Shown piece after piece: positions 196 to 30,608 of a stretch of 37,403 nt of DNA. The DNA comes from Candidatus Magasanikiibacteriota bacterium (GTDB lineage: Bacteria > Patescibacteriota > Patescibacteriia > Magasanikbacterales > UBA922). The stretch spans positions 1 through 37,403 of the forward strand of contig WJJZ01000009.1 in NCBI GenBank assembly GCA_014729395.1, written 5' to 3'. A model generated the notes under the pieces. It saw only the letters and a program-made list of their open reading frames with translations. It was not told where the DNA came from and made no database searches. The translations under genes were made by a program, and so were the position numbers. Numbering within the stretch: the stretch's first letter is position 1; the number at the start of each line of letters is the position of its first letter.

Positions 196-555
196 ATGCT
201 AAAAACATTATTTATTTCATTGGCTTGTCTTGGTTTATTATTTCCATCTGTGGTTATGGGGCAAGGTCTCCGAGATGCTACCGGAAATTTGCAAGGCGTA
301 GCTCAGCAAGCCCGAGTAGATGACAAAGCTGAACTAAGTGAAGTTGTGGGTTCAATTATTAATGGCGCTCTTACACTTGTGGGACTGGTATTTTTAGTCT
401 TAATGGTCTATGCGGGCTATCTTTGGATGACCGCTCGAGGTAATGAAGAGCAAGTTGAAAAGTCTAAAAAGATTATTACCGCGTCAATAATAGGTCTTGT
501 CATAGTGGTGAGCGCATATGCTATCACTACTTTTGTCACGAGTAGGTTTCAATAA
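196..555 (+). CDS. TrbC/VirB2-like pilin
   Basis: Signal-like N-terminus; two hydrophobic helices around YAGYLWMTARGNEEQVEKSKK. Confidence 0.8.
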   Translation: MLKTLFISLACLGLLFPSVVMGQGLRDATGNLQGVAQQARVDDKAELSEVVGSIINGALTLVGLVFLVLMVYAGYLWMTARGNEEQVEKSKKIITASIIGLVIVVSAYAITTFVTSRFQ

Positions 556-630
556 TACAATAATTTAACGGCAATTATACAATAATTATTGTATAATTAT
601 AGCCAGATTATTGTTAAATTACTGTATAAT
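551..630. repeat. Inverted array of 11-bp units, gene-less copy 1
   Basis: AATAATACAAT AATTTAACGGC AATTATACAAT AATT ATTGTATAATT ATAGCCAGATT ATTGTTAAATT ACTGTATAAT; 573-598 is a perfect 26-bp palindrome. Confidence 0.9.
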
Positions 631-1038
631 ATGAAAAAAATAATAACTACATTAACTATTTTAACTTTGTTAATAATACCGGTGAGTGTATTTGCAATAG
701 ATTTGGGTACAGGTTTGACTGAAGACGCCGCTTTAAGAGCCGGATATTCCGCCGGAACAACTGAAACCACTTTTGCGGAAACTCTTGGTACGGTGGTAAA
801 AGCGGCCTTGTCTCTTGTCGGTATAATTTTTACTTTGCTTTTGGTGTATGCCGGATATCTTTGGATGACAGCGCGTGGTGAAGAGGACAAAGTGAACAAA
901 GCAACAAAGATTATCCAAGCGGCAATAGTGGGATTAATTATAACTCTGGCTGCATATAGTATAACCAACTTTGTAGTGCCAAGAGTCCTGGAAAGAACAA
1001 CCGGAAATACGGGTACAATTGGTAGCCCTGAAGATTAA
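631..1038 (+). CDS. TrbC/VirB2-like pilin
   Basis: ATG 631 (MKKIITT...VFA signal peptide); YAGYLWMTARGEEDKVNKA motif. The upstream 589 start translates repeat DNA. Confidence 0.8.
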   Translation: MKKIITTLTILTLLIIPVSVFAIDLGTGLTEDAALRAGYSAGTTETTFAETLGTVVKAALSLVGIIFTLLLVYAGYLWMTARGEEDKVNKATKIIQAAIVGLIITLAAYSITNFVVPRVLERTTGNTGTIGSPED

Positions 1039-1039
1039 T

Positions 1040-1438
1040 ATGAAATTTTTTTTCTTACTGACATTTTTATTCGTATTTGTTTTCAGTATTTTTGTATTTC
1101 AGGCTGACTATTCACTCGCTCAGGTGGATCTGCAAGATCAAATAACGCAACAATATGAAGCCGGAGCGGGTGCGGCAGAGTTGGGAGAAGCGAGAGATCC
1201 GAGGAGAATAGTAGCTACAATCATAAAAGTTTTTTTAGGTCTTTTGGGAACTATTTTTATGGTTTTGGTTTTTATGGGAGGTTATTGGTTGCTTATAGCT
1301 AGGGGGGATGAAGAAAAAATAAAAAAAGCACAAAATACCATAAAGCGCGCTGTAATTGGATTAATTATCATTATGTTATCATATGCCATTGTGGATTACA
1401 TAGCCAAAGGCTTACAAACCGCAGTCTATGGCGGATGA
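1040..1438 (+). CDS. TrbC/VirB2-like pilin
   Basis: ATG 1040 just after the previous stop; GGYWLLIARGDEEKIKKAQNTI motif and two TM helices. Confidence 0.8.
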   Translation: MKFFFLLTFLFVFVFSIFVFQADYSLAQVDLQDQITQQYEAGAGAAELGEARDPRRIVATIIKVFLGLLGTIFMVLVFMGGYWLLIARGDEEKIKKAQNTIKRAVIGLIIIMLSYAIVDYIAKGLQTAVYGG

Positions 1439-1943
1439 GTTAGTTATTATGACCGATATAAAAAAATGTATTAAATTAAGTTTGCGTTATTTTGCGGCCT
1501 TCTTTTTGATTTTAATATATACTTTCTTTTTTTATATTGTTCCGGTAAATGCTAGTGGTGGTTCAAATAGTTCGGATTTGGCCGAGCAAACCGCTGCCTT
1601 TGCCGGTCAGCAAGGGGCCGGAATTGAAACAGACAGAGATGTAAGAGAAGTTGCTGCATTAATAATCAGAAGTGCTCTGGGTTTGATTGGGATTATATTT
1701 TTAGGATATGGAATTTATGGGGGATATGTAATTATGATGTCAAGAGGAAATGAAGAAAAAGTAGCTCAAGGCAAAAAAACACTTTTGACAGCTGTTATTG
1801 GTGTAATAGTGATTTTAGGAGCCTATGCGATTACATTGGCAATCGCCAGAATTGTAACACCGCGTAGCTATGAGTCCGGAGTAGATGTATGGGTAGAGCC
1901 GGATTATTCAGATTATTATAATAGTGATCCTTTGGGTTTTTAA
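1428..1943 (+). CDS. TrbC/VirB2-like pilin with C-terminal extension (alternative start 1449)
   Basis: YGGYVIMMSRGNEEKVAQGKKTL motif and two TM helices. Confidence 0.75.
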   Translation: MADELVIMTDIKKCIKLSLRYFAAFFLILIYTFFFYIVPVNASGGSNSSDLAEQTAAFAGQQGAGIETDRDVREVAALIIRSALGLIGIIFLGYGIYGGYVIMMSRGNEEKVAQGKKTLLTAVIGVIVILGAYAITLAIARIVTPRSYESGVDVWVEPDYSDYYNSDPLGF

Positions 1944-3043
1944 AATTTTTCCTTTATTACTTTTAGAATTTTATTGGCCCCGTTGGGGATATTTTTTTTA
2001 TGCGAAGAGGGGTTTTTTATATATTTATGCACGTAATACAATAAATCTTCGGGACTGTGCACCACGGATCCCAAATTATTTTGTAAAATATACTCGGCAT
2101 TTCTTTCTTCTTGCCCGGGTATCGGTTCGGTAGCAATAATATATTTGCCGCAAGCGATGCATTCAGTGGTAGTTAAACCACCGGTTTTGGTTATAATCAA
2201 GTCAGAGCATTTCACGTAGTCGTGAACGATGTCGGTCCAGCCAAGGATAGTCATTGAAATATTGTCAGGGTAGTTTATTTTTTCAAGTCTTTTCTTGAGA
2301 GTGGCGTTTTTCCCGGTGATTGCTATGATATGAATATCTTTATCAATTTTTAATAGTGTATTGATGACTTTATCGCTTCTTGTGAAACCTTGGCCACCAG
2401 ACATAACTAAGAAAATACTTTTATCAAGAGGTAAATTCAGTTTTTTCTTTAGAGTGATTGGATCCCTTTTTTCAAAAAAAACCGAATCAATCGGAATTCC
2501 ACTCAGGGTGGATGGAGCCCTGTTGTCGCTGTTCATTATTTTCCATTTCATTTTTTCCGTGGCAACAAAATAGTGACTGACTCCCGAAACAAGCCAAAGA
2601 TTATGCAGGTCATAATCTGTTAGAACAAGAGTAACCGGTACATTGAATTTATATTTTTTAGGAGCATTAAATATAATATCGGCAGGTAAGAAATGTGTAC
2701 AAATTATTATATCGGGCTTATATGAATTAATATATTCGTAAAATTTGTACGAGTTTATTTTTTTTAATTGATTTGTAATTTTGTTAAATTTGCGGCCTAT
2801 GTTATTGTTGTCGGTTTTATCATACAAATAACCCCATAATTCGGGCATTCTTTTTACAATTAGGTCATAAGAATCAATAACGGCTTTTTTCATTGTCAAT
2901 GTGGTGTGATCGATTAAATCAATATGTTTTGTTTCAATGTCGGGAAAATTTTGTTGTGCTTCCTTGTGTATTGCTTGAGCGGCTCGAACATGACCGGATC
3001 CACCCGGAATTGAGATAATTAAAACTTTCTTTTTTTGTTTCAT
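1940..3043 (-). CDS. Diacylglycerol glycosyltransferase (UgtP/MGDG synthase-like, GT28)
   Basis: GSGHVRAA, PDIIICTHFLP, ITKTGGLTTTE and PIPGQEERNA motifs. Confidence 0.88.
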   Translation of the reverse strand: MKQKKKVLIISIPGGSGHVRAAQAIHKEAQQNFPDIETKHIDLIDHTTLTMKKAVIDSYDLIVKRMPELWGYLYDKTDNNNIGRKFNKITNQLKKINSYKFYEYINSYKPDIIICTHFLPADIIFNAPKKYKFNVPVTLVLTDYDLHNLWLVSGVSHYFVATEKMKWKIMNSDNRAPSTLSGIPIDSVFFEKRDPITLKKKLNLPLDKSIFLVMSGGQGFTRSDKVINTLLKIDKDIHIIAITGKNATLKKRLEKINYPDNISMTILGWTDIVHDYVKCSDLIITKTGGLTTTECIACGKYIIATEPIPGQEERNAEYILQNNLGSVVHSPEDLLYYVHKYIKNPSSHKKNIPNGANKILKVIKEKF

Positions 3044-3098
3044 ATAAGCTTATTGTATCGTAAATTTGCTTTATATTCTAGTATTAAAAAATCCCCAA

Positions 3099-3174
3099 TG
3101 GGGTGGCTATCGGGAATTGAACCCGAATTGTCGGCGCCACAAGCCGAAGTAATAACCATTATACCATAGCCACC
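3099..3174 (-). tRNA. tRNA-His(GTG) with G-1 and encoded CCA
   Basis: Minus strand G-GTGGCTA...TCGGC TT GTG GC GCCGA...GGGTTCAATTCCC...TAGCCAC C CCA folds as a cloverleaf. Confidence 0.96.
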
Positions 3175-3200
3175 CCACTAGGGACTTGGATAACAAAAAA

Positions 3201-3229
3201 ATTATAGCAAGATTTTGCTGTTTTGTCAA
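3201..3229 (-). promoter_or_regulatory. Sigma70 promoter for tRNA-His
   Basis: TTGACA-17bp-TATAAT with extended TG on the minus strand. Confidence 0.85.
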
Positions 3230-3293
3230 TAATATTTATTGTTTTTTAAAAATAAAAAACAGCCCTTTTAATGAACTGTTTTTTTAAAGTTAA

Positions 3294-4040
3294 TTATTTA
3301 GTAGCCACTCTTTCAAAAGCTCTTAATACTTCCAAAGGAATCGCAAAAATAACAGTATTTGATTGGTCAGAGCTTAGGTCATTCAAGCTGTTTAGGGTTC
3401 TAAGGTGTAGAGCGCCCGGCTGGTCAGCTAATTTTTTGGCAGCATCAGTCAAGTTTTGTGAAGCAGCCACTTCACCTTCGGATTTAATAATCACCGCTCT
3501 TCTTTCGCGTTCAGCTTCAGCCTGCTTGGCTATAGTTCGTTGCATTTCATCCGGTAAAATAACGTCTTTTAACTCGACACTCTCTACTTTTATTCCCCAA
3601 GGATCTGTTGCTGTGTCAACGATTTCTTTTATTTTTTGAGCGGCTGTTTCTCTATTAGCAAGCAGTTCGTCAAGTTCCAGTTCACCTACCACATTTCTCA
3701 TAGTGGTCTGAGCCAATTGACTAACAGCGAACCAGAAATTTTCCACTTCTAATACGGCTTTGGAGGCGTCGGCTACCTTGTAGTAAATTACAGCATTAAT
3801 TTTTGCCGAAATATTATCTTTTGTAATGGCTTCCTGAAAAGGGACATCAACCGCTTTTACACGCATGTCGACTTTGGTCATGCTTTGGAAAACAGGAATA
3901 ACCAAGCGCCAACCCGGTTTAATTACTCCCTTGAATTTTCCAAGCTGAAATTTAACCCCTCTTTGGTATTCATTTACCTGGCGTATGCTTATTAGCAGTA
4001 CAACACCGATAAAAATTAATAAACTTATAAAACCTGACAT
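3294..4040 (-). CDS. SPFH/band-7 (stomatin/slipin) protein
   Basis: N-terminal TM; ITKDN, AQTTMRNVVG, WGIKVESVELKDV and AEAERERRA motifs. Confidence 0.93.
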   Translation of the reverse strand: MSGFISLLIFIGVVLLISIRQVNEYQRGVKFQLGKFKGVIKPGWRLVIPVFQSMTKVDMRVKAVDVPFQEAITKDNISAKINAVIYYKVADASKAVLEVENFWFAVSQLAQTTMRNVVGELELDELLANRETAAQKIKEIVDTATDPWGIKVESVELKDVILPDEMQRTIAKQAEAERERRAVIIKSEGEVAASQNLTDAAKKLADQPGALHLRTLNSLNDLSSDQSNTVIFAIPLEVLRAFERVATK

Positions 4041-4118
4041 ATTATTTTAGTTTAAAATCTAGAATTATTAAATCCCTTAATTAACTTGGGACGGGTCTAG
4101 AATTTATTAATATAACTT

Positions 4119-4147
4119 AGTATATGTAAAATTCATGGAAAATTCAA
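4119..4147 (-). promoter_or_regulatory. Probable sigma70 promoter for the SPFH gene
   Basis: TTGAAT-17bp-TATACT on the minus strand. Confidence 0.55.
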
Positions 4148-4198
4148 GAGCTCGGATAAAAAAACATACGTCAATTTAACTTTAGTTAAGTAATTTTT

Positions 4199-4254
4199 AT
4201 TGTACAATTATAGTCAAATTATAGTATAATTATTGTAATTTACTGTAATTTACT
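4199..4254. repeat. 11-bp-unit array, right arm only (copy 2)
   Basis: ATTGTACAATT ATAGTCAAATT ATAGTATAATT ATTGTAATTT ACTGTAATTT ACT, then ATG 4255. Confidence 0.85.
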
Positions 4255-5310
4255 ATGAAAAAATTATTATTAATCATTATTTTTACATTCGTTTTATTAC
4301 CAAGCGCTGTTTTTGCGACGGGCGAGACTCAATTTAAGGCCAGAATAGACAATATTGGTGATGATTTTATCAGAGTAGAAAATTTGGATACAAAAAAGAA
4401 ATACACAATTGATGAATCTTTTGAGGTGGGGATGAGGCAGCAGTTAAATATAGGTGACAAAGTGCTGGTAAATGAAATAACAATGCAGGATGGGGTAAAG
4501 AGATATGTCATTACCGATATGATACGCGGCCCTTGGATTTATGTGCTTATATTTATTTTTATGCTTACGGTAGCTTTGATTGGAGGAAAGCAGGGGGTGA
4601 GGTCGCTTTTTAATTTATTTTTGACATTGACTATAATTTTATTTGTTGTCATACCGCTTGTTTTAAAGGGTTGGAATCCGATACTGGTTGTGGTTGGTGG
4701 CGGCTCTCTTGCAATGTTATTCAACATATACATCACGTACGGAATAAATAAAAAATCCCATGGGACATTAATAAGTATAATCGCCAGTTTATTTTTGGCT
4801 GCTTTGATGTCGGCTTTTTTTGTTCGATTTGCTTCTCTTACCGGGTTTGTCCAAGAGGAAGCGAGTTTTATTATCACTCTTGGTTATAGCGATTTGGATA
4901 TGAGGGGAATACTGTTGGCCGCAATTATTGTTGGTACGCTTGGTGTAATCGATGATTTGGCAATAAGTCAGATTTCATTGGTAAGGGAATTATCAAAAGC
5001 AAACAAGAAAATGACCAAGCTTGAGTTATTCCAGTCTGCGTTCAGAGTCGGGAGAGATCATACCAGTTCGATGGTTAATACTCTTGTTTTGGCTTATACC
5101 GGTGCGGCTTTTCCTTTAATGATATTATTTTCCATAGGCAACCCACCATTTGATTCCTTGGCTTCTATACTAAATAATGAAGCTGTTGCGACTGAAATTG
5201 TCCGTACTTTGGTAGGGAGTATTTGTTTGCTTTTTACAATGCCGATTGCTGCCTGGGTGGGGGCCTGGTTATTTCATAACAAAGTTGACAAAAAGACTGA
5301 AAAAGGTTAA
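4255..5310 (+). CDS. YibE/F family membrane protein
   Basis: Multi-TM; LGVIDDLAISQ, VGRDH, MVNTLVLAYTG and EIVRTLVGSI motifs. Confidence 0.9.
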   Translation: MKKLLLIIIFTFVLLPSAVFATGETQFKARIDNIGDDFIRVENLDTKKKYTIDESFEVGMRQQLNIGDKVLVNEITMQDGVKRYVITDMIRGPWIYVLIFIFMLTVALIGGKQGVRSLFNLFLTLTIILFVVIPLVLKGWNPILVVVGGGSLAMLFNIYITYGINKKSHGTLISIIASLFLAALMSAFFVRFASLTGFVQEEASFIITLGYSDLDMRGILLAAIIVGTLGVIDDLAISQISLVRELSKANKKMTKLELFQSAFRVGRDHTSSMVNTLVLAYTGAAFPLMILFSIGNPPFDSLASILNNEAVATEIVRTLVGSICLLFTMPIAAWVGAWLFHNKVDKKTEKG

Positions 5311-5313
5311 AAT
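5285..5313 (+). promoter_or_regulatory. Sigma70 promoter for tRNA-Arg, overlapping the 3' end of the YibE/F gene
   Basis: TTGACA-17bp-TAAAAT. Confidence 0.7.
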
Positions 5314-5331
5314 TTGTGTGTTTTCTTATAC

Positions 5332-5403
5332 GGGCCCGTAGTTCAATGGATAGAATAGAAGCCTTCTAAGCTTTAGATCTAGGTTCGATTCCTAGCGGGC
5401 CTA
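5332..5403 (+). tRNA. tRNA-Arg(TCT), CCA not encoded
   Basis: GGGCCCG...GAAGC CT TCT AA GCTTT...CTAGG TTCGATT CCTAG CGGGCCT A cloverleaf. Confidence 0.95.
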
Positions 5404-5404
5404 C

Positions 5405-5432
5405 AAAAAATCCAGCTCTAGCTGGATTTTTT
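5405..5432. terminator. Bidirectional intrinsic terminator
   Basis: AAAAAATCCAGCT CT AGCTGGATTTTTT between the convergent tRNA and recombinase gene. Confidence 0.75.
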
Positions 5433-6510: not shown

Positions 6511-6539
6511 TTGACAAAGTGCTATTTTTTTGCTATAAT
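6511..6539 (+). promoter_or_regulatory. Consensus sigma70 promoter
   Basis: TTGACA-17bp-TATAAT with extended TG. Confidence 0.88.
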
Positions 6540-6868: not shown

Positions 6869-7327
6869 ATGTTTTATCTTATCCTACCCAACATCAGATC
6901 ATGTCACAATGTCGGCGCCATGTTTAGAACCGCCGATGCTTTTGGCATTAGTAGAATTTTTTTAGTAGGTTATACGGCCAGTCCGCCCAAAATTCAAATT
7001 GACAAAGTCGCGCTTGGTGCGGAAAAATGGGTACCTTGGGAAAAAAGGGAAGATTTGGCGAGTTTAATAAAAGAACTTAAAGAAAAAGGAGTAAAAATAG
7101 TAGCTTTAGAAAAAAATGATAAAAGTATTAATATTTCTTTAACAAAATTTGATGCCCCGCTTGCTTTAATAGTAGGTAATGAGGTGGAGGGGGTTGAACC
7201 GGATATATTAAAAATGTGTGATCAGATCGTGCATATTCCGATGTACGGGAAGAAGGAGAGTTTGAATGTTTCGGTTGCAGCCGGTGTGGCGATGTATGTA
7301 ATAAACAATAATTACACAATAATTTGA
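6869..7327 (+). CDS. SpoU/TrmH family RNA 2'-O-methyltransferase
   Basis: ATG 6869; NVGAMFRTADAFG, VGNEVEG and IPMYGKKESLNVSVAAG SPOUT motifs. Confidence 0.92.
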   Translation: MFYLILPNIRSCHNVGAMFRTADAFGISRIFLVGYTASPPKIQIDKVALGAEKWVPWEKREDLASLIKELKEKGVKIVALEKNDKSINISLTKFDAPLALIVGNEVEGVEPDILKMCDQIVHIPMYGKKESLNVSVAAGVAMYVINNNYTII

Positions 7328-7398
7328 CCATAATTACACAATAATTATTTTAATTATCGTCAAATCATTGTTAAATTATCATATAATTATAGTATTCT
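7300..7398. repeat. Inverted array of 11-bp units, gene-less copy 3
   Basis: AATTACACAAT AATTTGACCAT AATTACACAAT ... ATCGTCAAATC ATTGTTAAATT ATCATATAATT ATAGTATTCT; contains the upstream stop codon and ends at ATG 7399. Confidence 0.9.
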
Positions 7399-8067
7399 AT
7401 GAAAACCATAATTTTTGACATCGAAACAATTCCTGTGGATTTTGATTCCTTGGATGAAGCTCAACAATATTATTTACAAAAATATGCGGATACAGATGAA
7501 GAAAAAGAAAAAGTAAAAGATCAAATGGCTCTGTGGGCGCCGACAAATAGGATAGTGGCAATTGGAATGCTTTCGGTAGAATCTGAAAGTGGAGCGGTTT
7601 ATTTCCAGGATGGCGATAAAGAGATTGAGGATTTTGAAGATGGGGAAATTAAATATTCAGCCGGATCTGAAAAAGAAATTTTAGAAAAATTTTGGAAAGC
7701 AATTTCTTTTGCTAATAAATTTGTTACTTTCAATGGACGCGGATTTGACTGTCCGGTGCTTATGTTGCGGTCGGCTATGCTTGAAGTTAAGCCAACAAAA
7801 AATTTAATGCCGTATAGATATAGCGCGGATCAGCATGTTGATTTATTGGAACAGCTGACTTTTTATAATGCGTCCAGAAAGTTTAATTTGGATATGTATT
7901 GCAAGGCTTTTGGAATAAAATCTCCAAAGTCAGGCGGTGTTACCGGTCATGATGTGAAGCCCTTATTTCATGCCGGTGAGTATGAAAAGATAGCTAAATA
8001 TTGTGCCGGGGATTTATTTGCAACACGTGAACTCTATCTTCGCTGGGAGGAGTATATTAAGTTTTAG
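7399..8067 (+). CDS. DEDDy 3'-5' exonuclease related to the PolB exonuclease domain
   Basis: IIFDIETIP, FVTFNGRGFDCP, HVDL and YCAGD motifs. Confidence 0.85.
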   Translation: MKTIIFDIETIPVDFDSLDEAQQYYLQKYADTDEEKEKVKDQMALWAPTNRIVAIGMLSVESESGAVYFQDGDKEIEDFEDGEIKYSAGSEKEILEKFWKAISFANKFVTFNGRGFDCPVLMLRSAMLEVKPTKNLMPYRYSADQHVDLLEQLTFYNASRKFNLDMYCKAFGIKSPKSGGVTGHDVKPLFHAGEYEKIAKYCAGDLFATRELYLRWEEYIKF

Positions 8068-8115
8068 TTGAAACAATAATTCAACCATAATTATACAAAT
8101 ATTATACAATAATTT
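8068..8115. repeat. Left arm of the 11-bp-unit element, upstream of the four-helix-bundle gene
   Basis: TTGAAACAAT AATTCAACCAT AATTATACAAA TATTATACAAT AATTT. Confidence 0.88.
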
Positions 8116-8117
8116 AT

Positions 8118-8510
8118 ATGCCGGGTAAGTATATAGAATTGAAAGATTTGTTTGTTTATAAAATTTCTTTGGAATTGTGTGACATGGCTTGGGAGATTTA
8201 CCATACATTTGATTGGCAGATTAAAAAAATTATTGGTGATCAGTTTATCAGAGCAGTTGACTCAAATGCTGCCAATATAGTTGAAGGCTATGGGAGGTAT
8301 CATTATCTTGATAAAATTAAGTTCTACTATAATGCTAGGGCATCGTTAATGGAGTCAAAACATTGGTGTATTTTGTTGTCAAAAAGAAAGTTGGTCAATA
8401 AAAAAAATTATGATAATTTTTTGAAACAAATTGAACATGTTCACTACCATCTTAATAATTGGATTAACGTTACCTATAAAAATAGAGATCAGTTCGGTAG
8501 TGATAAGTAG
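8118..8510 (+). CDS. Four-helix-bundle protein (23S rRNA IVP / Avd-like family)
   Basis: DLFVY...DQFIRAVDSNAANIVEGYGR...FYYNARASLME signature. Confidence 0.92.
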   Translation: MPGKYIELKDLFVYKISLELCDMAWEIYHTFDWQIKKIIGDQFIRAVDSNAANIVEGYGRYHYLDKIKFYYNARASLMESKHWCILLSKRKLVNKKNYDNFLKQIEHVHYHLNNWINVTYKNRDQFGSDK

Positions 8511-8530
8511 AAAATAATTTATCCGTAATA

Positions 8531-8585
8531 ATTGTGCAATTATTGTGTAATTATTGTATAATTACTGTATAACTATTGTAACCCT
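8531..8585. repeat. Right arm of the 11-bp-unit element, downstream of the four-helix-bundle gene
   Basis: ATTGTGCAATT ATTGTGTAATT ATTGTATAATT ACTGTATAACT ATTGTAACCCT, then ATG 8586. Confidence 0.9.
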
Positions 8586-9284
8586 ATGCATTCTCAAGAC
8601 GTAAAATATACCCTATTTATTTTTAGGGTAGTTTATTCCAAATTACCCCCTCTTGTGCCGGAGGAAATAAGAAAAGAATTAGGCCATGCTTTGGATCACT
8701 TAAAGAGTGATTATGATATTACTTTATCGGAGGCCGAAGAAACCTTGGTTGTGTTTGGTAAAAAAATATGGCCTTTTTGGAAGGCTTTTGAGGAAATGGT
8801 AAATATGCACAAGGGAGAACTGGGGGAAAAATTTTTTATATCAAAACTTCCTCCAAAGATAAAGAAAAAATATTCGGAATTTAAAGAACATGGCGGAGAA
8901 TTTAAGGATTTTGCCACAGGTTCGCCAATGTCATTTTTTGATGATAGTGATCGGCAGTTTTTGACTTCTGTCTTATTGGAAGTTGACAAGGATATTCGCT
9001 TACACACAAGACAGGAAGTTTTGGGTATAGATAAAGATAGGTACCAGGAATTAATCGTTGAATTTGGGGAGGTTTTGGATGGTATTGAGAAAAGACTTGA
9101 AACATTAAGGACAATGGCCGATAGTGAGCAAGAGCACCCACAGCTGGCAGACGAGATTAGAGCACAGATTAAAGCGTTTGAGCATGGGATTTGCTTTTTG
9201 GCACCAAAAATAAATTTGGATGACATTAATAATTCATATGAATTTTTTGTAGAAAGAAAGCAGGAAAAAATAACTCTAAGATAG
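8586..9284 (+). CDS. Hypothetical alpha-helical protein, paralog of 9291-9962
   Basis: Long ORF in operon orientation; shares FGKKIWP and EF.E.GG...DF motifs with the next ORF. Confidence 0.85.
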   Translation: MHSQDVKYTLFIFRVVYSKLPPLVPEEIRKELGHALDHLKSDYDITLSEAEETLVVFGKKIWPFWKAFEEMVNMHKGELGEKFFISKLPPKIKKKYSEFKEHGGEFKDFATGSPMSFFDDSDRQFLTSVLLEVDKDIRLHTRQEVLGIDKDRYQELIVEFGEVLDGIEKRLETLRTMADSEQEHPQLADEIRAQIKAFEHGICFLAPKINLDDINNSYEFFVERKQEKITLR

Positions 9285-14970: not shown

Positions 14971-15050
14971 AAAAATTGGAGACTGGAGATTGGTGATTAG
15001 ATAAACAAAGAAATTGACTTACCAACCTCTAATCACTAGTCTCTAATTTT
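14971..15050. repeat. Inverted heptamer array (TRGAGAY type)
   Basis: TGGAGAC TGGAGAT TGGTGAT TAGATAA is inverted to ACCTCTA ATCACTA GTCTCTA; overlaps the rpiB stop. Confidence 0.8.
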
Positions 15051-15487
15051 TCAATTTTTTTCAGTCTCCGCACATGCCTTTCCTTCTCGCTGAATTCAGT
15101 TTCCAGCCATTTTTTAACAATAGCCATAGAATGTTCTTCAGAAGTGAGTTTAGCTGCCAAGCATAGGATATTAGTTTTGTCATCAGTCATCATGGTTTCG
15201 GCAGCCATCATATTATAACCTATTCCGGCTCTGACACCCTTTACTTTATTTGCGGCTACACAAACTCCTATGCCATTTTTACATATTAAAATTCCTCTTG
15301 AGTCTTCTTCTGCTACTTTTTTTGCCAAGGGAATGGCATAATCGGGGTAGTCATCACCCTCATTATATTTGTAGGGACCCATATCTTCCACTTCAAAATC
15401 GAGCTCATTTTGAAGATAGCGAATTAAGCGTTTTTTTAATTGATACCCTCCGTGGTCAGAGGCGATATATAGGGATCCTTTGTACAT
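15029..15487 (-). CDS. rpiB: Ribose-5-phosphate isomerase B
   Basis: IASDHGG, DDYPD, GILICKNGIG, ANKVKGVRA and RHVRR motifs. Confidence 0.92.
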   Translation of the reverse strand: MYKGSLYIASDHGGYQLKKRLIRYLQNELDFEVEDMGPYKYNEGDDYPDYAIPLAKKVAEEDSRGILICKNGIGVCVAANKVKGVRAGIGYNMMAAETMMTDDKTNILCLAAKLTSEEHSMAIVKKWLETEFSEKERHVRRLKKIEKLETSD

Positions 15488-17000: not shown

Positions 17001-17029
17001 TTGACAAAATTATTGTTTTTGCCTAAAAT
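17001..17029 (+). promoter_or_regulatory. Sigma70 promoter of the ileS leader
   Basis: TTGACA-17bp-TAAAAT. Confidence 0.75.
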
Positions 17030-17046
17030 AACCATATAATCATAAA

Positions 17047-17213
17047 AGCTTTGATCCCGGCTATCACCGGGGGAGTTGCCGGAAGAAAACCTGTATCATA
17101 GGTAAGTAGAACCGGCCGGGTAAGCCCGTAATCGCTATATTAAGAGCCACTAAGTTGGAAATGAGGTGGTACCGCCCGGATGGGTCCTCATACACTGGTG
17201 GTTTTTGTTTTTT
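17047..17213 (+). promoter_or_regulatory. T-box riboswitch (Ile, AUC specifier) with ultrashort Stem I
   Basis: GATCCCGG CTATCA CCGGGGGAG Stem I with ATC at 17063-65; GGAAGAA...AGTAGAACC Stem II; CGGGTAAGCCCG Stem IIA/B; ATGAGG-TGGTACC-GCCC GGAT GGGT-CCTCAT discriminator; lies directly upstream of ileS. Confidence 0.92.
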
Positions 17214-17215: not shown

Positions 17216-17332
17216 AACTATACTATAATTATACAATAATTTGACGATAATTATACGATAATTTAACAATAATTATTTTTAAATTATGGTCAAATTATAT
17301 TTTAATTATTGTACAATTATTGTTAAATTTTT
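17216..17332. repeat. Inverted array of 11-bp units, gene-less copy 4
   Basis: Five left units (e.g. AATTATACAAT AATTTGACGAT AATTATACGAT AATTTAACAAT), then five right units (e.g. ATGGTCAAATT, ATTGTACAATT ATTGTTAAATT), ending 3 nt before the ATG. Confidence 0.92.
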
Positions 17333-21753: not shown

Positions 21754-21804
21754 TAGAATCTGGAATCTAAAATTAAGAATCTAGATTATAAATTTTAAAT
21801 TCTA
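21754..21804. repeat. Inverted heptamer array (TAGAATY type)
   Basis: TAGAATC TGGAATC TAAAATT AAGAATC TA GATTATA AATTTTA AATTCTA. Confidence 0.8.
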
Positions 21805-21814
21805 ATTTAATATT

Positions 21815-22797: not shown

Positions 22798-22915
22798 GCA
22801 ACCCACCCCCCACCCCCTCCCTTAAAAAGGGAGGGGGAAATTACTAAGCCAAGTTTGATAAACTTTTTTTGCAAGCTCTCTCCCCTTTTTAAGGGGAGGG
22901 TTGGGGAGGGGTTGC
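22798..22915. repeat. GC-rich palindromic inverted-repeat element
   Basis: GCAACCCACCCCCCACCCCCTCCCTTAAAAAGGGAGGGGG (22798-22837) is inverted to 22876-22915; each arm has an internal hairpin. Confidence 0.88.
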
Positions 22916-22942: not shown

Positions 22943-24229
22943 ATGAACAGAACAAAAATAGAATTACTAGCTCCGGCAGGTAGTATTGAAAAAATGCGTT
23001 ATGCCTTTGCCTATGGTGCGGACGCGGTATATATGGGAATACCGGATTTTAGTTTACGAGTTAGGATAAATAATTTTACATTGGACACGGTAGAGCAAGC
23101 AATTAAAGAAGCACATGATCTGGGCAAGAAAATTTATGTGACGATAAATATATATGCCCACAACGAACATTTGAAAAACCTGCCTGATTATTTGAAAAAA
23201 TTAAAAAAAATGAAACCGGATGCTTTTATTATATCTGATCCCGGTGTAATGCAATTTGCCAAAAAATATGCCGGCCAAATTCCAATCCATGTATCCACAC
23301 AAGCTAATGTTACCAATTGGTCGGCTGCTAAATTTTGGCACAGCCAAGGAGTGGAGAGAGTAATACTCGGCAGGGAAGTGTCAATAGAAGAAATAAAAGA
23401 AATACATGAAAAAGTACCGGAATTGGAACTGGAGCATTTTATCCATGGCGCTATGTGTATGAGCTATTCGGGTCGTTGTATGCTTAGTTCTTGGCTTACG
23501 GGTAGGTCGGCAAACTTGGGAGATTGTGCTCAGCCCTGCCGTTGGAAGTATTCTCCACAATTAGCCGAGCACCATGTTTTAAGTGCAGAGGTGGAAGAAC
23601 CGTTGCGTCCGGGAGTTAAAATACCGGTGGAAGAAGACAAAAATGGTACCTATATTTTCAATTCCAAAGATATGTGTATGATAGAATATTTGCCGGAAAT
23701 GATAGAAACCGGTCTTGTGAGTTTTAAAATTGAGGGGAGAGCGAAAAGTCCTGCTTATTTGGCAAGTGTTGTAAAAGCATATAGACAAGCCTTTGATATG
23801 TTAGAGGGTGAAATAGACAAAAAGAAAGCCAAGAAGAAATTAAAGAAAATAAAAAAAGAAATCTTAGACAAATTGGTTCATCGAGGTTATACGACCGGCT
23901 TTGCTTTTGGTAAAGAGTCAGTAGAACAAAATATTGATAATAGCCATATTGGTGGGGAAGAGCAATTTGTGGGAGAAGTGCTGAACTGTAAAAAACATGA
24001 TAAAAACTATTTGGTTAAAATCAGACCACACAATGCTATTAAACTTGGTGATGAACTAAGAATCATGCGGCCTAAAAGTGAAGATGTTCGGTTAACTATT
24101 AAAAACATGTATAATGAGAAGGGAGAAGAGATTGAAAGCGGACACGGGGGTGCGGGGAAGAATGTTGTATTAGAGTTGGATAGAGGGGTGGAGGAGTTTG
24201 GGATTGTATTTAAGAATTTGGAATTATAA
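22943..24229 (+). CDS. Peptidase U32 family protein (TrhP/YegQ-like tRNA hydroxylation protein)
   Basis: ATG 22943; ELLAPAG, HVSTQANVTN, HGAMCMSYSGRC...CAQPCRW Fe-S motif and SFKIEGR. Confidence 0.9.
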   Translation: MNRTKIELLAPAGSIEKMRYAFAYGADAVYMGIPDFSLRVRINNFTLDTVEQAIKEAHDLGKKIYVTINIYAHNEHLKNLPDYLKKLKKMKPDAFIISDPGVMQFAKKYAGQIPIHVSTQANVTNWSAAKFWHSQGVERVILGREVSIEEIKEIHEKVPELELEHFIHGAMCMSYSGRCMLSSWLTGRSANLGDCAQPCRWKYSPQLAEHHVLSAEVEEPLRPGVKIPVEEDKNGTYIFNSKDMCMIEYLPEMIETGLVSFKIEGRAKSPAYLASVVKAYRQAFDMLEGEIDKKKAKKKLKKIKKEILDKLVHRGYTTGFAFGKESVEQNIDNSHIGGEEQFVGEVLNCKKHDKNYLVKIRPHNAIKLGDELRIMRPKSEDVRLTIKNMYNEKGEEIESGHGGAGKNVVLELDRGVEEFGIVFKNLEL

Positions 24230-24313
24230 ATTTTGAATTTTGAATCAATTTTAAATTCATTAATTAAATAATTAAGAATTCAATCAAAATTTTAAACTCA
24301 AAATTCGAAATTC
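24212..24313. repeat. Inverted heptamer array (TTGAATT/AAAATTC type)
   Basis: AAGAATT TGGAATT ATAAATT TTGAATT TTGAATC ... AAAATTT TAAACTC AAAATTC GAAATTC; contains the U32 stop and ends 5 nt before the ruvA ATG. Confidence 0.88.
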
Positions 24314-24318
24314 TACAT

Positions 24319-24897: not shown

Positions 24898-24898
24898 A

Positions 24899-25275: not shown

Positions 25276-25382
25276 ATTACCTCCTTTTTTAAAGATCTTT
25301 TTCGATTGCGAGAATAAATTATCACTAAAAATATAAAAAGTCAATCAAAAATATTAATTAAATTATAGAGACATTAAAGTAT

Positions 25383-25411
25383 AAAACACACCCGGAGAAT
25401 AGGTGTGTTTT
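25383..25411 (-). terminator. Terminator after gyrA
   Basis: AAACACACC CGGAGAATA GGTGTGTTT hairpin. Confidence 0.65.
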
Positions 25412-25431
25412 GATTTTTTATTATTTTTTAG

Positions 25432-27912
25432 TTAAAGGAGGGCGGTGCCAGCAACCTTGTCACCACCGGCTTTAAATCGCATAATTCTTACTCCCTGCGT
25501 GGCTCTACCAAGTGTGGAAATATTTTTAACCGGCGTTCTGACAACCTGACCTTTTTTGGAGATAAGAAGTACATCTTGGTCTTCTGTTTTATTTATTACT
25601 TTTGCACTTATAATCGGTCCGGTTTTATCCGTAATGTTCATGGTTTTAATTCCACTACCACCTCTACCTTGAACTTTGTACTCATTTATTTTGGTTCTTT
25701 TACCGAGTCCGTTTTCTGATACTACCAATAGTTCCAGGACTTTTTTAGCCACCAGTTTGGGGGGAATAACATCCATACCAACCACTTCATCATTAGATTT
25801 AATTCTTATACCACGTACACCACCGGCGGTTCTACCCATAGCTCGGACACCTTTTTCTTTAAATCGGATAGCTTGGCCAAGAGAAGTAACAATAATGACG
25901 TCGTCTTTACCCGTACTCGGTCTTACCCATTCCAGCATATCATCAGTTTTTAATTTTATTGCTATAAGGCCGGAACGGCGGACATTTTGAAAGTCTTCCA
26001 CTTTTGTTCTTTTAATAGTGCCTTTTTTTGTAACCATTACCAAGTATTTATACTTACTCATATCATCGACCGAACGAATATAGGATACCCTTTCATTTGG
26101 AGCCAACTGTAAAAAGTTTACCAGAGCCTGTCCTTTGGCGGTTCTGGTGGTCTGCGGAATATCATATGCTCGTAATTGAAAGACTCTGCCTCGCGTGGTA
26201 AAGAATAATAAATTATCATGAGTGTTTGTTGATATTACTGACTCGACCACATCTTCTTCCTTTGTGGTTAGACCGATTACACCTTTACCTCCACGCCGCT
26301 GTGTTTTAAATGTGCTTGGGGGAAGCCTTTTTATGTAGCCGTCTCTTGTGGTCAATATTATGGTTGGTTCGTTAGGGATTAGGTCTTCTATTCTGAATTC
26401 CTTTACTCCATGAGCAATTACTTGAGTTCTTCTTCCATCTCCGTATTTTTCTTTTACGTCTTTTACGTCTTTTTTTATAATGTTAAGTATTTTTTTAGGA
26501 TTTTTTAAAATGGATTCCAGTTCTTTTATTAATTCTTTCTTTTCTTTTAATTCATCCAGAATTTTTTGTCTTTCCATATTAGCCAATTGTTGCAATCTCA
26601 TTTCCAATATAGCCGCTGATTGTCTATCGGTAAATTTAAATTTTTTCATCAGGTTGCTCTTGGCCGCATCTTTGTCCTTTGATTTTCTAATGGTATTAAT
26701 AACCGCATCTATTTTGTCTATAGCTTTTTTAAGACCTTCCAATATATGAGCTCTCTCCTTGGCTTTGTTCAAATCAAATTCAGTACGTCTTTTTATTACA
26801 TCTTGACGATGTTTAATATATTCTTCCAAAACCGATTTAAGGTTTAGTAACCTGGGTTGGATACCATCAACCAAAGCAATCATATTTACATGAAAAGTCG
26901 TCTGTAAGTCGGTTAATTTGAAGAGACGATTTAAGACTTTTTTTGGATATGAATCTTTTTTTAGGTCAATTACTATTCGTACGCCATCTTTGTTTGATTC
27001 ATCTCTTAAGTCCTTTATACCATCGATTTTTTTATCTTGAACCAGTTTGGCAATTTTTTCTATAAGATTGGCTTTATTTACTTGGTATGGAATTTCATTA
27101 ACAATAATTTGGAAAGTTCCACGTTTTTTTTCTTGGATATCCGTTTTTGCTCTTATCACTATTCCCCCTCTACCGGTAGCATAAGCGGATAAGATGTCCT
27201 TTTTGTTGTAAATAATACCACCTGTTGGAAAATCAGGCCCTTTAATATATTCCATCAGGTCTTCAATGCTGGTTTTTGGTTTATCAATCAGTGTAATAAC
27301 GGCATCACATAATTCTTCCAGGTTGTGGGGTGGAATGTTTGTCGCCATACCAACAGCAATCCCCATTGTTCCATTAAGCAGTAAGTTCGGTAATTTACTT
27401 GGCAAAACTATTGGTTCTTTTTGTGATCCATCATAATTCGGCATGAAATTGACCGTTTCTTTTTCTATATCAATCAACATTTGTTCAGCTGCCGCTTGAA
27501 GTTTGGCTTCTGTATATCTCATCGCAGCGGCTGAATCACCATCCATTGAACCAAAGTTTCCTTGTCCATAAACCAAAGGTAGGCGCATAGAAAAATCTTG
27601 CGCCATTCTGACCATCGAATCGTAAATGGCAGCGTCGCCATGAGGATGATATTTACCCATCACATCTCCAACCACACGGGCTGATTTAAGAAATTTTGAA
27701 GTATGTTTTAATCCCAATTTCCACATAGCATACATTATTCGTCTGTGAACGGGCTTTAAACCGTCCCTTACGTCAGGTAATGCTCTCGCTACAATAACAC
27801 TCATAGCATAATCAAGATATGAAGTTTTCATCTCTTCCACTATCGGAGCTTCTTCCACATCTCCTATGGGATTTATATCCAAATTTGCTTGTTTTTCTTT
27901 TTTCTTTGGCAT
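25432..27912 (-). CDS. gyrA: DNA gyrase subunit A
   Basis: [29 protein letters not shown] and GyrA-box QRRGGKG; probable start MPKKKEK at 27912. Confidence 0.97.
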
Positions 27913-27925
27913 AAACTTTATTTTT

Positions 27926-28456
27926 TCAGTTGATAGATAAACTTGAACTTGTATGTTCAAAATCAGATAATGTTGAGCTTGCGATTGAGTCTGTGCTGCT
28001 TGCTGAAGATGATGCAGCGTTTAGTTTTATTTCAGTTGAAATTTCACTAAGTATATTTGCAATATCTTCTACATCCATTTTATCTTTTTTTTCTTGCGAA
28101 TTATTATTTTTTGTTTTGTTATTGTCATTTACTTCATCTTGATCAACGCTACTGATGATCGAACCGATATCGGCTTTCGCTTCATTGAAAAAGGAACTTA
28201 CCTCACCATTACCGCTGTTTGATACTTTTTTAAATATTATTCCCGCGTTCCAAACCCACATCACAAAGATTATAGAGCTAATGGACAGGACACCGATCCA
28301 TAACAAAATTCGACTACTGTCCGTTGGGTAATTATTGTATTCTAAATTATTGCGAGTATCATCCTTTTTTTTGCTTTTAGCTGACTCTGTTTTTTTCAAA
28401 TCTGCAGTTTCAACAAAAATTCCGGGTATCCTTTTTTTATTGTTTGTTTTATTCAT
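27926..28456 (-). CDS. Hypothetical single-TM protein with Ser-rich tail
   Basis: One hydrophobic segment ([20 protein letters not shown]); tightly packed in the operon. Confidence 0.8.
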
Positions 28457-28458
28457 AT

Positions 28459-29073
28459 CTATTCTTTACTTAAAACTTCAACCCTTGTTTCGTCTTGGGG
28501 AAGGTCTTTTTTCTTTATGATTATTTTCTTTTCCGGTTTGCCGTTTTTACTGCCAATTTCTTTAAGAAATTTATCAACATCTGCGAAGTTCGGATCATTT
28601 TCACTTTTGAAAGCTATGGGAATAACAATTCGGGGTTCGACTGTATTAACTACTTTAACAGCTTTTTCCGCATCATAACAATCCTTGCCTCCCACCGGAA
28701 TGATTAAAATATCAACACCATTTAATAAAGATAAGTTGTCGTCATTCGGTTCCTTATTTAGCAGACCGAGGAAGCCGACACTCATTTGTTCCGAGTCAAT
28801 TCTAAATATTATCTTATTTTCTTCGGGTGACTGTGAGGCGGCGATTAAAACTCCTTTTGTTTCACATTCTCCGGGCATTGACAGTGTAAACGGTTTGCCG
28901 GAAAGTGTAATTGAATTTTTTTCTCCTCTACTATATAGACCGATATCGGGAGTCAAAGATCGTGGAAATTGACCTTTTGTCGGCTTATATGGGTCCAATA
29001 CAATCGTAATATCCTTATCAAAAGGCTTGGTTTGTATTTTTACACAAGTTGTTCCATGCCATGAAAAATGCAT
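28459..29073 (-). CDS. MBL-fold protein (lactamase B-3-like) with degenerate metal motif
   Basis: SWHGTTCVKI, IVLDPY, PGECE and VDILIIPVGG...EPRIVIP family motifs; HxHxDH absent. Confidence 0.8.
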   Translation of the reverse strand: MHFSWHGTTCVKIQTKPFDKDITIVLDPYKPTKGQFPRSLTPDIGLYSRGEKNSITLSGKPFTLSMPGECETKGVLIAASQSPEENKIIFRIDSEQMSVGFLGLLNKEPNDDNLSLLNGVDILIIPVGGKDCYDAEKAVKVVNTVEPRIVIPIAFKSENDPNFADVDKFLKEIGSKNGKPEKKIIIKKKDLPQDETRVEVLSKE

Positions 29074-29130
29074 ATGTCTTTGTCAAAAATAGATAGATTA
29101 TAACCTTTTTTATCTTAAATATACGCATAT

Positions 29131-29159
29131 ATTATACAGATAAAATTAAGCAATGGCAA
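29131..29159 (-). promoter_or_regulatory. Promoter for the MBL-fold/gyrA operon
   Basis: TTGCCA-17bp-TATAAT on the minus strand. Confidence 0.7.
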
Positions 29160-29184
29160 GGGTTTAATGCGATTATTTCCACCC

Positions 29185-29213
29185 TTGACTGGCTTAAAAC
29201 TTCATGCTATAGT
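29185..29213 (+). promoter_or_regulatory. Promoter for rpsA
   Basis: TTGACT-17bp-TATAGT with extended TG. Confidence 0.75.
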
Positions 29214-29296
29214 AGTCACGCTTTTTAACTTAATTTAAACAATTCTGTAGTAACACAGAACACTCTCCCAGCGAGGGTTAATTTAATTTTTAATTT

Positions 29297-30517
29297 ATGT
29301 CAGAAGACGACAAAAAGAGTGACTTTAAGAAAATGCTAAAAGACTACTTTATCGCGGTTCCAAAAGAAGGCGAAATGGTCAAGGGCGAAGTCATCTCTGT
29401 TGATCACGGGGCGGTCCGGCTTGATGTTAACGGAGTAACAACCGGTATTGTCAGAGGTCAAGAACTTTTTAATGAGTCCTCAGAATATGCCAATATAAAG
29501 GTTGGTGATATTGTGGAAGCAACAGTAGTGGAACAAGAAAATGAGAACGGTGAAGTTGAATTGTCATTTAGAATAGCCGGTCACCAGAGAGTATGGAATA
29601 AGATGGAAGAATATAAAAAAGACGAGATAACTATTCCGGCAAAAGTTATTTCTGCCAATAAGGGTGGTTTGATGGTAAAAGTGGATGCTCTTGTCGGGTT
29701 TATGCCCGTTTCACAGTTAAATCCTGATCATTATCCGCGTGTACCCGGAGGCGATAAAAATAGAATTTTGGAAAAATTAAAAGAATTGATCGGTACGGAA
29801 ATGGAGGTAAAGGTTATTGATGCAGATAAAAAAGAAGAAAAATTAATCGTTTCCGAAAAAGCTGTTTGGGAAGATGAACAAAAAAGTGTGCTGGAGTCCT
29901 ATAATATAGGAGACGTAGTAGAAGGCGAGGTAAGCGCACTAACATCGTTTGGAGCTTTTATAAAATTCGGTGAAGGTTTGGAAGGATTGGTTCATATTTC
30001 TGAAATAGTTTGGCAAAGGATTGATCATCCAAAGGATGTTCTCAAGGTAGGTGATAAAGTAAAAGCGCAAATAATCGATTTAAACAAATCAAAGATTTAT
30101 TTATCCATCAAAAGGTTGGTGGACGACCCTTGGAAAGGGGTTAAAGATAAATACAAGGTTGGACAGATTGTTGAGGGTGAAATTCACAAAATAGAACCGT
30201 TTGGTCTGATGGTTAAACTGGATGAGGATATTCATGGCTTGGCTCATATATCAGAGCTTTCAGATTCAAATATACGAGATGTAAGCGATTTAGAGAAGAT
30301 GTTTGATATTGGAGAAAAAAGAAAATTTGAAATCATGAATATTGAACCGGCTGAACACAGACTTGGTTTAAAACTTGAGGGGATAAAAGGGAAAGAAAAG
30401 CCGGATTCAGATACGGAAAAAATAGAAAAAAAAGAAGAAAACAATACTGAAGAATCAAATAAAGAAGAAAAAGAACCGGCAAAAGAAACGGAAGACAAAG
30501 AGGGAGACAATAAATAA
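29297..30517 (+). CDS. rpsA: 30S ribosomal protein S1 (four S1 domains, acidic tail)
   Basis: NKGGL..GFMPVSQL, FGAFI..GLEGLVHISE and DPW..GLAHISEL repeats. Confidence 0.93.
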   Translation: MSEDDKKSDFKKMLKDYFIAVPKEGEMVKGEVISVDHGAVRLDVNGVTTGIVRGQELFNESSEYANIKVGDIVEATVVEQENENGEVELSFRIAGHQRVWNKMEEYKKDEITIPAKVISANKGGLMVKVDALVGFMPVSQLNPDHYPRVPGGDKNRILEKLKELIGTEMEVKVIDADKKEEKLIVSEKAVWEDEQKSVLESYNIGDVVEGEVSALTSFGAFIKFGEGLEGLVHISEIVWQRIDHPKDVLKVGDKVKAQIIDLNKSKIYLSIKRLVDDPWKGVKDKYKVGQIVEGEIHKIEPFGLMVKLDEDIHGLAHISELSDSNIRDVSDLEKMFDIGEKRKFEIMNIEPAEHRLGLKLEGIKGKEKPDSDTEKIEKKEENNTEESNKEEKEPAKETEDKEGDNK

Positions 30518-30521
30518 TGAT

Positions 30522-30552
30522 AAAAAAACATCCTGAAAACGGGGTGTTTTTT
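30522..30552 (+). terminator. Intrinsic terminator after rpsA
   Basis: AAAAAACATCCTG AAAA CGGGGTGTTTTTT. Confidence 0.8.
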
Positions 30553-30608
30553 AGTACAATAATTATTGTTTAATTATAGTCAAATTATTGTATAGTTATG
30601 GTGTAATA
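30551..30608. repeat. 11-bp-unit array, mostly right arm (copy 5)
   Basis: TTAGTACAAT AATT ATTGTTTAATT ATAGTCAAATT ATTGTATAGTT ATGGTGTAATA. Confidence 0.85.

Follow-up and report, generated by a model that had tools for sequence, protein, structure and literature searches.

Gene-less inverted arrays of an 11-nt unit in a Patescibacteria genome as probable members of a foldback cassette of the 23S rRNA intervening-sequence type

Intervening sequences (IVS) of bacterial 23S rRNA are the closest described relatives of the elements reported here. The IVS of Coxiella burnetii is presented in PMC4990558 as a selfish element in helix 45, with a terminal stem of 28 bp that RNase III cuts and an open reading frame (ORF) for an S23p protein. 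The same paper describes cleavage of rRNA IVS by RNase III in the stem, cites IVS of Leptospira and Salmonella, and names as open hypotheses a 'remnant of transposition' and a 'mobile element whose ORF aids mobility'. For rRNA genes of the candidate phyla radiation, PMC11270868 reports PF05635 ORFs as well as insertions that have no ORF, and the family is named in a figure legend of PMC10910872. Word searches of open-access texts (supplements excluded) returned neither PF05635 genes bracketed by tandem-unit arms nor gene-less copies outside rRNA. Although known for decades, rRNA IVS and S23p proteins have no agreed origin or function. The present analysis concerns contig C4 (WJJZ01000009.1, 37,403 nt, hereafter the window) of a Candidatus Magasanikiibacteriota genome (GCA_014729395.1, hereafter G000; Patescibacteria, 1.01 Mb, 17 contigs, about 36% G+C). 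Five intergenic blocks of the window consist of inverted arrays of an 11-nt unit and probably represent the gene-less form of a dispersed foldback cassette of the 23S rRNA IVS type, whose full copy lies at 8068-8585.

The cassette resembles rRNA IVS in its long stem, which arises from complementary ends and may enclose a PF05635 gene in its loop, in the occurrence of ORF-bearing and ORF-less forms, and in its sporadic distribution; IVS are likewise regarded as selfish. In addition, a sister-family element is located in a 23S helix of the same window and is matched by the arm of a PF05635 gene. Unlike IVS, the five arrays and the gene-bearing copy lie between genes and not at the tip of 23S helix 9, 25 or 45, and their arms are tandem short-unit arrays in a family of about 15 loci around one gene-bearing copy. 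Repetitive extragenic palindromes (REP), their doublets (REPIN) and the REP-associated tyrosine transposases (RAYT) share with the cassette the many short intergenic palindromes, a single-copy gene flanked in inverted orientation by the same repeats, and the logic of autonomous and non-autonomous copies; here, however, the central gene encodes a four-helix bundle and not an HUH (histidine-hydrophobe-histidine) Y1 transposase.

Miniature inverted-repeat transposable elements (MITEs) and foldback transposons are inverted-repeat elements that lack genes and descend from a longer coding element, and the arms of foldback elements consist of tandem short repeats in differing copy numbers. To our knowledge, foldback elements are eukaryotic. 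For the present arrays no transposase was seen, nor any target-site duplication at sites too diverged to define junctions, and their length is not fixed.

The following features of the window and array loci of the genome were recorded (contig:position outside the window).

551-630: gene-less inverted array, three left and four right units, with a type IV secretion pilin-like paralogue on either side
4197-4254: gene-less array consisting solely of right-arm units and two degenerate 10-nt ones, immediately ahead of ATG 4255
7300-7398: gene-less inverted array, four left and four to five right units, between SpoU methylase and 3'-5' exonuclease genes
8068-8117: left arm of the gene-bearing copy, four units, 'A' haplotype
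8118-8510, plus strand: gene of a 130-aa four-helix-bundle protein at the centre of the palindrome, PF05635 23S_rRNA_IVP (E 3.2e-21), TIGR02436 (E 1.9e-21)
8511-8585: right arm of the gene-bearing copy, one left-type unit followed by five right-type units, ending 4 nt before ATG 8586
17042-17192, plus strand: T-box leader, RF00230, 53.9 bits, E 1.1e-9, under the gathering score of 93
17216-17332: largest gene-less inverted array, five left and five right units, filling the space from the T-box leader/terminator to the ileS ATG 17333
30553-30608: gene-less array, one left and four right units, from the terminator of the S1 protein gene to the promoter-like site of tRNA-Leu
Period-11 calls of Tandem Repeats Finder: 551-601/584-630, 4197-4238, 7305-7347, 8072-8114, 8526-8580, 17214-17276/17271-17329, 30559-30607
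Array loci in the window: 551, 4197, 7300, 8068/8511, 17216, 30553
Array loci outside the window: C1:8696; C5:132556, 137007, 138683; C6:107402, 186844, 205269, 272740; C17:1813

The unit AATTATNGTNN forms inverted arrays at all five gene-less blocks and at the gene-bearing block. At the five blocks and around ORF 8118-8510 alike, left-type units (ACNATAATT-like) come before their reverse complement AATTATNGTNN, and this order of left-type before right-type units holds in every two-armed locus. Period-11 arrays were called by Tandem Repeats Finder at every window locus. These calls and inspection reproduced the five blocks of 11-nt units and reverse complements described from the letters alone (the original prediction), as well as the placement of the variant units ATTGTTAAATT at 610/7367/17319, ATAGTCAAATT at 4210/30576 and ATTGTACAATT at 4199/17308. 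The bare core AATTATNGT (at most one mismatch) was not enriched in the genome, with 2686 matches versus 2724-2794 in three Markov-3 shuffles. The predicted periodicity was nevertheless well above background: same-strand core matches spaced exactly 11 nt numbered 72, versus 4, 3 and 5 in the Markov-3 shuffles. Array loci were counted by reading 60 clusters of at least three core matches in G000, resulting in 15 loci with inverted-array build and one doubtful locus on C8. Seven of these 16 are located on C4, which makes up 3.7% of the genome (binomial 8e-7); this test is post hoc because the window had been flagged for these arrays.

Extraction of units by coordinates, with at most two mismatches to the core required, yielded 118 units from 28 arms. 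The core is conserved at 8/11 positions across the arms: 1-6 and 8-9 hardly change, and variation is found at 7, 10 and 11. This profile is partly circular because of the mismatch limit. Four units were counted in 17/28 arms, five units in five, six in three, three in two and one in a single arm; unit number does differ between loci as predicted, though less than had been stated. Two arm haplotypes were distinguished by the second unit from the centre, which is either an AATATT-type variant (five arms, including the left arm of the gene-bearing copy, 'A') or ends in GTCA (nine to eleven arms). Within a haplotype, the units after the second keep the same order across distant loci. Exact stretches of 34-40 nt are common to C6:107437, C6:186841 and C17:1851 on different contigs. 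Given these ordered haplotypes and up to 40 identical bases at distant loci, the arms are copies of one element, and the arrays form one element family.

Slippage of AT-rich spacers could also have produced arrays in situ, with no copying of a mobile element. Unit numbers that differ between loci (3-6) agree with this, and single unit-like stretches are present at two sites of the congeneric genome G001. The ordered multi-unit haplotypes and the exact shared stretches are not expected from slippage, and the unit recurs in other genomes and flanks related genes on unrelated contigs; an origin of this kind is considered extremely unlikely. No Rfam family matched the arrays across the whole window at gathering thresholds or in four loci at E<=0.1. 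A CRISPR array was rejected, as no spacers separate the units and one half is inverted relative to the other. An iteron or ParR-parC-type array was rejected as well, on account of the inverted repeats, the roughly 15 unlinked loci and the absence from the congener's orthologous sites. Likenesses to DnaA boxes, LexA boxes, IHF sites and attC sites, seen by eye, fitted only over a few bases and were dropped.

The protein encoded at the centre of the full copy gave no match to PDB sequences as a single 130-aa sequence; a profile of 18 relatives was needed and matched 2RLD and 2GSC. The model built on these relatives shows four helices at a predicted local distance difference test value of 93.3. 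Its best fold matches were the uncharacterised family members 2GSC and 2RLD, together with Avd (4DWL), the accessory protein of the Bordetella phage diversity-generating retroelement, and the Avd chains in the ribonucleoprotein of diversity-generating retroelements (8UBE and related). The predicted structure superposes on Avd with template-modelling scores of 0.75/0.90. Among the relatives in the hit list, Avd alone has a characterised function, and it is part of a solved retroelement ribonucleoprotein; it differs in that sequence identity is 12-15% and that neither a reverse transcriptase nor a template/variable repeat is present at 8068-8585.

A search for relatives of the central protein returned 80 loci, of which 62 with both flanks readable were analysed; 18 were dropped by eye (match touching the locus end, or near-duplicate row). 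The seven closest metagenomic relatives are 58-64% identical. Among these, L164, L165 and L168 (58-62% identity) have AATTATNGT arms, and the closest, L163 (64%), has the related unit AATATTTGT; arms of either type were found in 0/54 more distant relatives. In a quick tree, the four AATTAT-armed genes fall inside one 14-row clade (SH-aLRT, the Shimodaira-Hasegawa-like approximate likelihood ratio test, 88). The AATTAT arm label required two changes on this tree versus 3.9 in shuffles, and 0/500 shuffles were as low. L164 has an additional gene-less array of the unit about 900 nt from its PF05635 gene. On these comparisons the arm unit type appears to follow the central protein, so that gene and arms would travel together.

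For comparison, 40 relatives were used, including G001 (same genus), G008 and G013. A pattern of three consecutive units gave 36 matches in G000, one in G013 and none in the 39 other relatives including G001; controls with the reversed pattern gave none. PF05635 matches occur in 19/40 relatives (0-13 per genome), with no PF05635 gene in G001 versus four in G000. A scan with one genome per species returned 46 three-unit stretches. Five of these, from three Patescibacteria assemblies including one Candidatus Falkowbacteria, have the inverted build, and in all three assemblies the array is multi-copy with the same architecture. The other 41 were set aside, as by eye they were plain direct microsatellite-like repeats in unrelated taxa. 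Judged by identity of the N-terminal part of isoleucyl-tRNA synthetase (IleRS) to that of G000, the assemblies G041 (72%, partial) and G042 (65%) are about as distant from G000 as G001 and G013 (70% each). As a separate observation, L100 (G013:C1) carries at 160-225 a one-armed run of left-type ACAATAA[CT]T units that ends at an ATG; a PF05635 gene lies 1.3 kb away, and its arms are built of a different 10-nt unit.

G001 was array-free at 6/6 orthologous window sites.

Site of 551 (pilin junction): 9-nt spacer in G001; 14-nt spacer at the same junction in G013
Site of 4197 (upstream of the YibE/F gene): ordinary TATAAT-type region, no array
Site of 7300 (SpoU-exonuclease junction): about 20 nt
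Site of 8068-8585 (exonuclease to next gene): about 55 nt, no cassette
Site of 17216 (ileS leader): T-box followed by about 85 nt that contain no more than a single unit-like stretch
Site of 30553 (S1 to tRNA-Leu): terminator, directly followed by the promoter-like site, then tRNA

The same search for inverted pairs gave nine pairs, the longest of 23 nt, in the 27.9-kb contig C10 of G001, which holds orthologues of several window genes, and 31 pairs of up to 55 nt in the window. At three of the same junctions, unrelated palindromes are present in G008 (one of TACGAAA-type units and another unrelated one) and in G013 (a different inverted array in the ileS leader). Judged from the aligned sites, the arrays are insertions relative to G001. 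The comparison of orthologous sites, which had been suggested together with the view that the arrays are non-autonomous copies of 8068-8585, is in line with mobility: the arrays are not conserved in relatives. The common unit and arm haplotypes, the clustering near the full copy and the same arms on close relatives of the central gene also bear out that view, which would include decayed copies.

The conservation of the core in 28 arms and in three other genomes could also point to operator-like DNA, to which a protein (the four-helix bundle or another) binds unit by unit on one helix face and thereby controls a regulon. A period near one helical turn, the constant head-to-head arrangement, the agreement of unit type with the phylogeny of the central protein and the proximity of 12/15 loci to a start codon (within 16 nt) are all compatible with such a function. 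However, the sites are missing at the six orthologous positions of G001, and the flanking genes (pilins, YibE/F, SpoU, exonuclease, IleRS, S1, RuvA) have no common function. Several arrays are located inside operons or after a T-box terminator and not at promoters, and the shared multi-unit haplotypes indicate copying and not independent sites. Sister families, moreover, have periods of 7-10 nt. A role as operators is therefore rated unlikely.

All 4/4 PF05635 genes of G000 are located between inverted short-unit arrays, each with a different unit. Short-unit inverted arms were also found around nearly all of 23 examined genes of G041-G043 and around most of the 62 metagenomic relatives. Arm periods across these cassettes are mostly 7, 8, 10 or 11. 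For this reason the period of 'about one helical turn' mentioned in the original prediction is no property of the cassette class: the sister cassettes use 7-, 8- and 10-nt units. The sister-family members below belong to this comparison.

14971-15058: hairpin array, arm like that of the PF05635 gene C5:14640
24213-24316: inverted array between genes, a member of the sister GAATTTT family whose end lies 2 nt ahead of ATG 24319 (ruvA)
34952-35108, plus strand: about 140 nt inserted at a 23S rRNA helix tip, inverted GAATT-type 7-nt units, sister family

An element of the same build is thus present in the 23S rRNA of the same window. The cmscan alignment places the insertion at model positions of about 1200-1218, in what we take to be helix 45 (numbering from PMC4990558 and general knowledge). 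The energy of its fold is -39.9 kcal/mol (z -7.9). The insertion is 78-83% similar to the intergenic array 24213-24316, and it matches an arm of the PF05635 gene C6:39015 at 92% over 26 nt. The arms of two further PF05635 genes recur at two-armed gene-less arrays (C12:4105, C16:8928, C5:125680 and window 14971-15058); some further BLAST matches of sister arms were one-armed or doubtful. G000 hence displays the IVS build outside rRNA, in one gene-bearing copy and about 14 gene-less copies with common arm haplotypes. Clean empty sites are available in a congener, and a sister family links a PF05635 gene to the rRNA insertion itself.

The arrays are located in short gaps between genes, mostly directly before a start codon. 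Besides the 12 loci next to a start, two of the 15 are found 121-155 nt ahead of tRNA genes, and one is flanked by convergent genes. The start codons at C5:132556 and C17:1813 were read by eye. In 5/15 loci the upstream stop codon is inside the left arm or within 5 nt of it. In the window, stop 553-555 lies inside the first unit of 551-630 and the SpoU stop 7325-7327 within the left arm of 7300-7398, both as originally described. ATG 631 follows its array directly; the starts at 4255, 7399 (exonuclease), 8586 and 17333 likewise come after a right arm, and the distance of these five from the last recognisable unit is 0-14 nt. The predicted rule that right arms end at an ATG held for them and failed for the copy at 30551-30608, which adjoins none. 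The gene at ATG 4255 is YibE/F-like and its upstream neighbour is divergent. Start-codon adjacency is partly a consequence of short native spacers. At six loci with spare spacer, the array still adjoins the start (combined p 0.006 under uniform placement, based on crude ORF calls). A stringent generic search returned 53 foldback loci in G000 and two in a shuffle. Among the former, 51/53 are intergenic and 24 of these 51 have a start codon no more than 25 nt away; about a third belong to a GC-richer 82-nt family.

The predicted hairpins of the arrays range from -9 to -29 kcal/mol, and the minimum free energies (MFE) of the five gene-less arrays from -10 to -23 kcal/mol. For four of these five the fold is much more stable than in dinucleotide shuffles (z -4.4 to -5.1): 551-630 (-20.7 kcal/mol, z -4.7), 4197-4254 (z -4.4), 7300-7398 (z -5.05) and 17216-17332 (z -4.8). 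The array 30553-30610 was not clearly better than its shuffles (z -1.9). In the MFE and centroid folds of 8062-8590, the arms 8068-8117 and 8511-8585 pair across the gene. Shine-Dalgarno motifs are not enriched in G000 (74/734 starts genome-wide versus a background of 9.7%). The absence of Shine-Dalgarno motifs as a special trait of array genes was therefore rejected, since the whole genome has no such enrichment. A T at position -1 was counted in 77% of the 734 starts; this unusual context may bear on translation start in the lineage.

Stops in or within 5 nt of left arms, with starts after right arms, would also result if the hairpin was selected as a translation device, the stem joining upstream stop and downstream start so that ribosomes restart despite the insert. 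The placement of arrays beside the start at the six loci with spare spacer agrees with this, as do the missing Shine-Dalgarno enrichment and the sister-family arrays 158-193, 21763-21814 and 24213-24316, which also end 0-3 nt before an ATG. On the other hand, arrays precede genes that have no co-directional upstream gene (4197, C6:107402), and array 17216 precedes a T-box-controlled gene. The predicted foot of the stem is often 15-20 nt from the stop or start, and arms of the same locus are not specially matched to each other. Selection as a translation device is judged quite unlikely.

A perfect sigma-70-type promoter (6511-6539) lies upstream of the gene string holding array 7300-7398, and a TTGACA-17-TAAAAT promoter (17001-17029) lies ahead of the T-box leader. 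With the T-box match, these promoters would place the arrays 7300, 8068-8585 and 17216 inside transcription units. It was also considered that the arrays are portable promoters or UP-like elements, whose right-arm -10 boxes or AT-rich curved DNA drive the downstream gene. Some unit junctions indeed read TGTATAAT; the promoter-like match that scores best for gene 4255 (TGTACA-18-TATAAT, 10/12) lies within array 4197-4254, and array 30553 abuts the -35-like hexamer of the tRNA-Leu promoter-like site (TTGATT-17-TACAAT at 30611-30639; tRNA-Leu at 30730-30812). But only 28/118 units give TATAAT with the next unit, the distance from box to ATG is not fixed, and the best or perfect sigma-70-type promoters lie outside arrays. 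In addition, one array is located downstream of a T-box terminator, before the gene it controls, and one between convergent genes. Genome-wide, no sharp -10-like hexamer peak at -7 was seen, as leaderless mRNAs would give; there was only a slight rise from -10 to -7, and the only clear hexamer peak near starts reflects the T at -1. The leaderless-mRNA idea was rejected on this basis. The portable -10 box proposed earlier is thus not borne out, and a promoter function appears very unlikely. By their sequences, the arrays do not seem to fit either conserved operators or promoters, and annotators should label such arrays neither as promoters nor as CRISPRs; PF05635 genes were reported in cas loci (PMC3936711).

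In the favoured reading, a dispersed IVS-type foldback cassette, the full form would consist of a PF05635 gene between two inverted arms of about four tandem 11-nt units each, and the gene-less form of the two arms alone. Most arrays are presumably transcribed with their host genes and would then fold into long A-U hairpins. By analogy with rRNA IVS, these are probably cut by RNase III, which is encoded in G000 (C6:273757-274416), or simply tolerated. An insert directly before an ATG would cost little because the organism shows no Shine-Dalgarno use. Gene-less copies might perhaps spread, or be acted on, via the four-helix-bundle protein of the cognate full copy. Array C6:272740 is located about 0.9 kb from the RNase III gene, probably by coincidence.

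Several results weigh against this reading. No transposase, target-site duplication or defined end was found for the arrays. No duplication was visible between filled G000 and empty G001 sites, which are too diverged to define junctions. Where a MITE would have a cognate transposase in its longer copy, the full copy here encodes a four-helix bundle in which no catalytic domain is known. The one Y1 transposase gene of G000 (IS200/RAYT-like; C7:320-661, PF01797, on a 2.7-kb contig) has other flanks, namely short GC-containing hairpins, and the AATTATNGT matches nearby are scattered singles; membership in a REPIN-RAYT system was rejected as the gene is not flanked by the array repeats. G001 keeps the single unit-like stretches mentioned above, and old arrays may have contracted in G001 rather than been gained in G000. 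With regard to the protein, a 59%-identical G013 gene and the 52-53%-identical genes of G041 and G042 have other arms, and AATTAT arms were found on 0/23 examined PF05635 genes of G041-G043 though arrays are present there (12-29 pattern matches), so that a cognate gene is not always at hand. With regard to the RNA, arms in cis are no more complementary than arms in trans (double-centred duplex energies, mean residual +2.0 kcal/mol, permutation p 0.95). There is thus no sign of hairpin selection beyond the shared units, although arms sharing descent would give the same result and the test is therefore silent on such selection. In 10/14 arrays the sense strand gives a better fold than the antisense strand, which is not significant. 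Array 30553, between a terminator and a promoter-like site, may escape transcription.

A wider proposal is offered as a tentative and rather doubtful possibility. IVS proteins could be Avd-like, perhaps pentameric, repeat-specific nucleic-acid binders, each recognising the unit of its own arms (about four to five per arm) and thereby copying or maintaining its own cassette together with gene-less arm pairs. This would amount to a transposase-free selfish system that seeds rRNA insertions and inter-gene hairpins and settles where the stem joins stop and start. The cassettes offer a concrete, testable pairing of protein and repeat, and the element family would explain much of the AT-rich 'junk' in the spacers of a streamlined genome.

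Further repeats and neighbouring features were noted. The GC-richer 82-nt palindrome family is present at window 31300-31381 and about 15 other loci (e.g. C1:47057, C2:13044, C6:121293), with 24-26/26 arm bases paired, and differs from the AT-rich arrays. At window 22803-22911, just upstream of a U32 peptidase gene, C-rich and G-rich units (CCACCCC / GGGGAGG type) form inverted arrays. Between the promoter-like site and tRNA-Leu, window 30640-30729 holds about 90 GC-rich nucleotides with no Rfam match and no G001 counterpart. Long tandem runs of type IV secretion pilin-like paralogues, with 12-15 matches per genome, were found at window 196-1943, G001:C19, G013:C2 and G008:C91.

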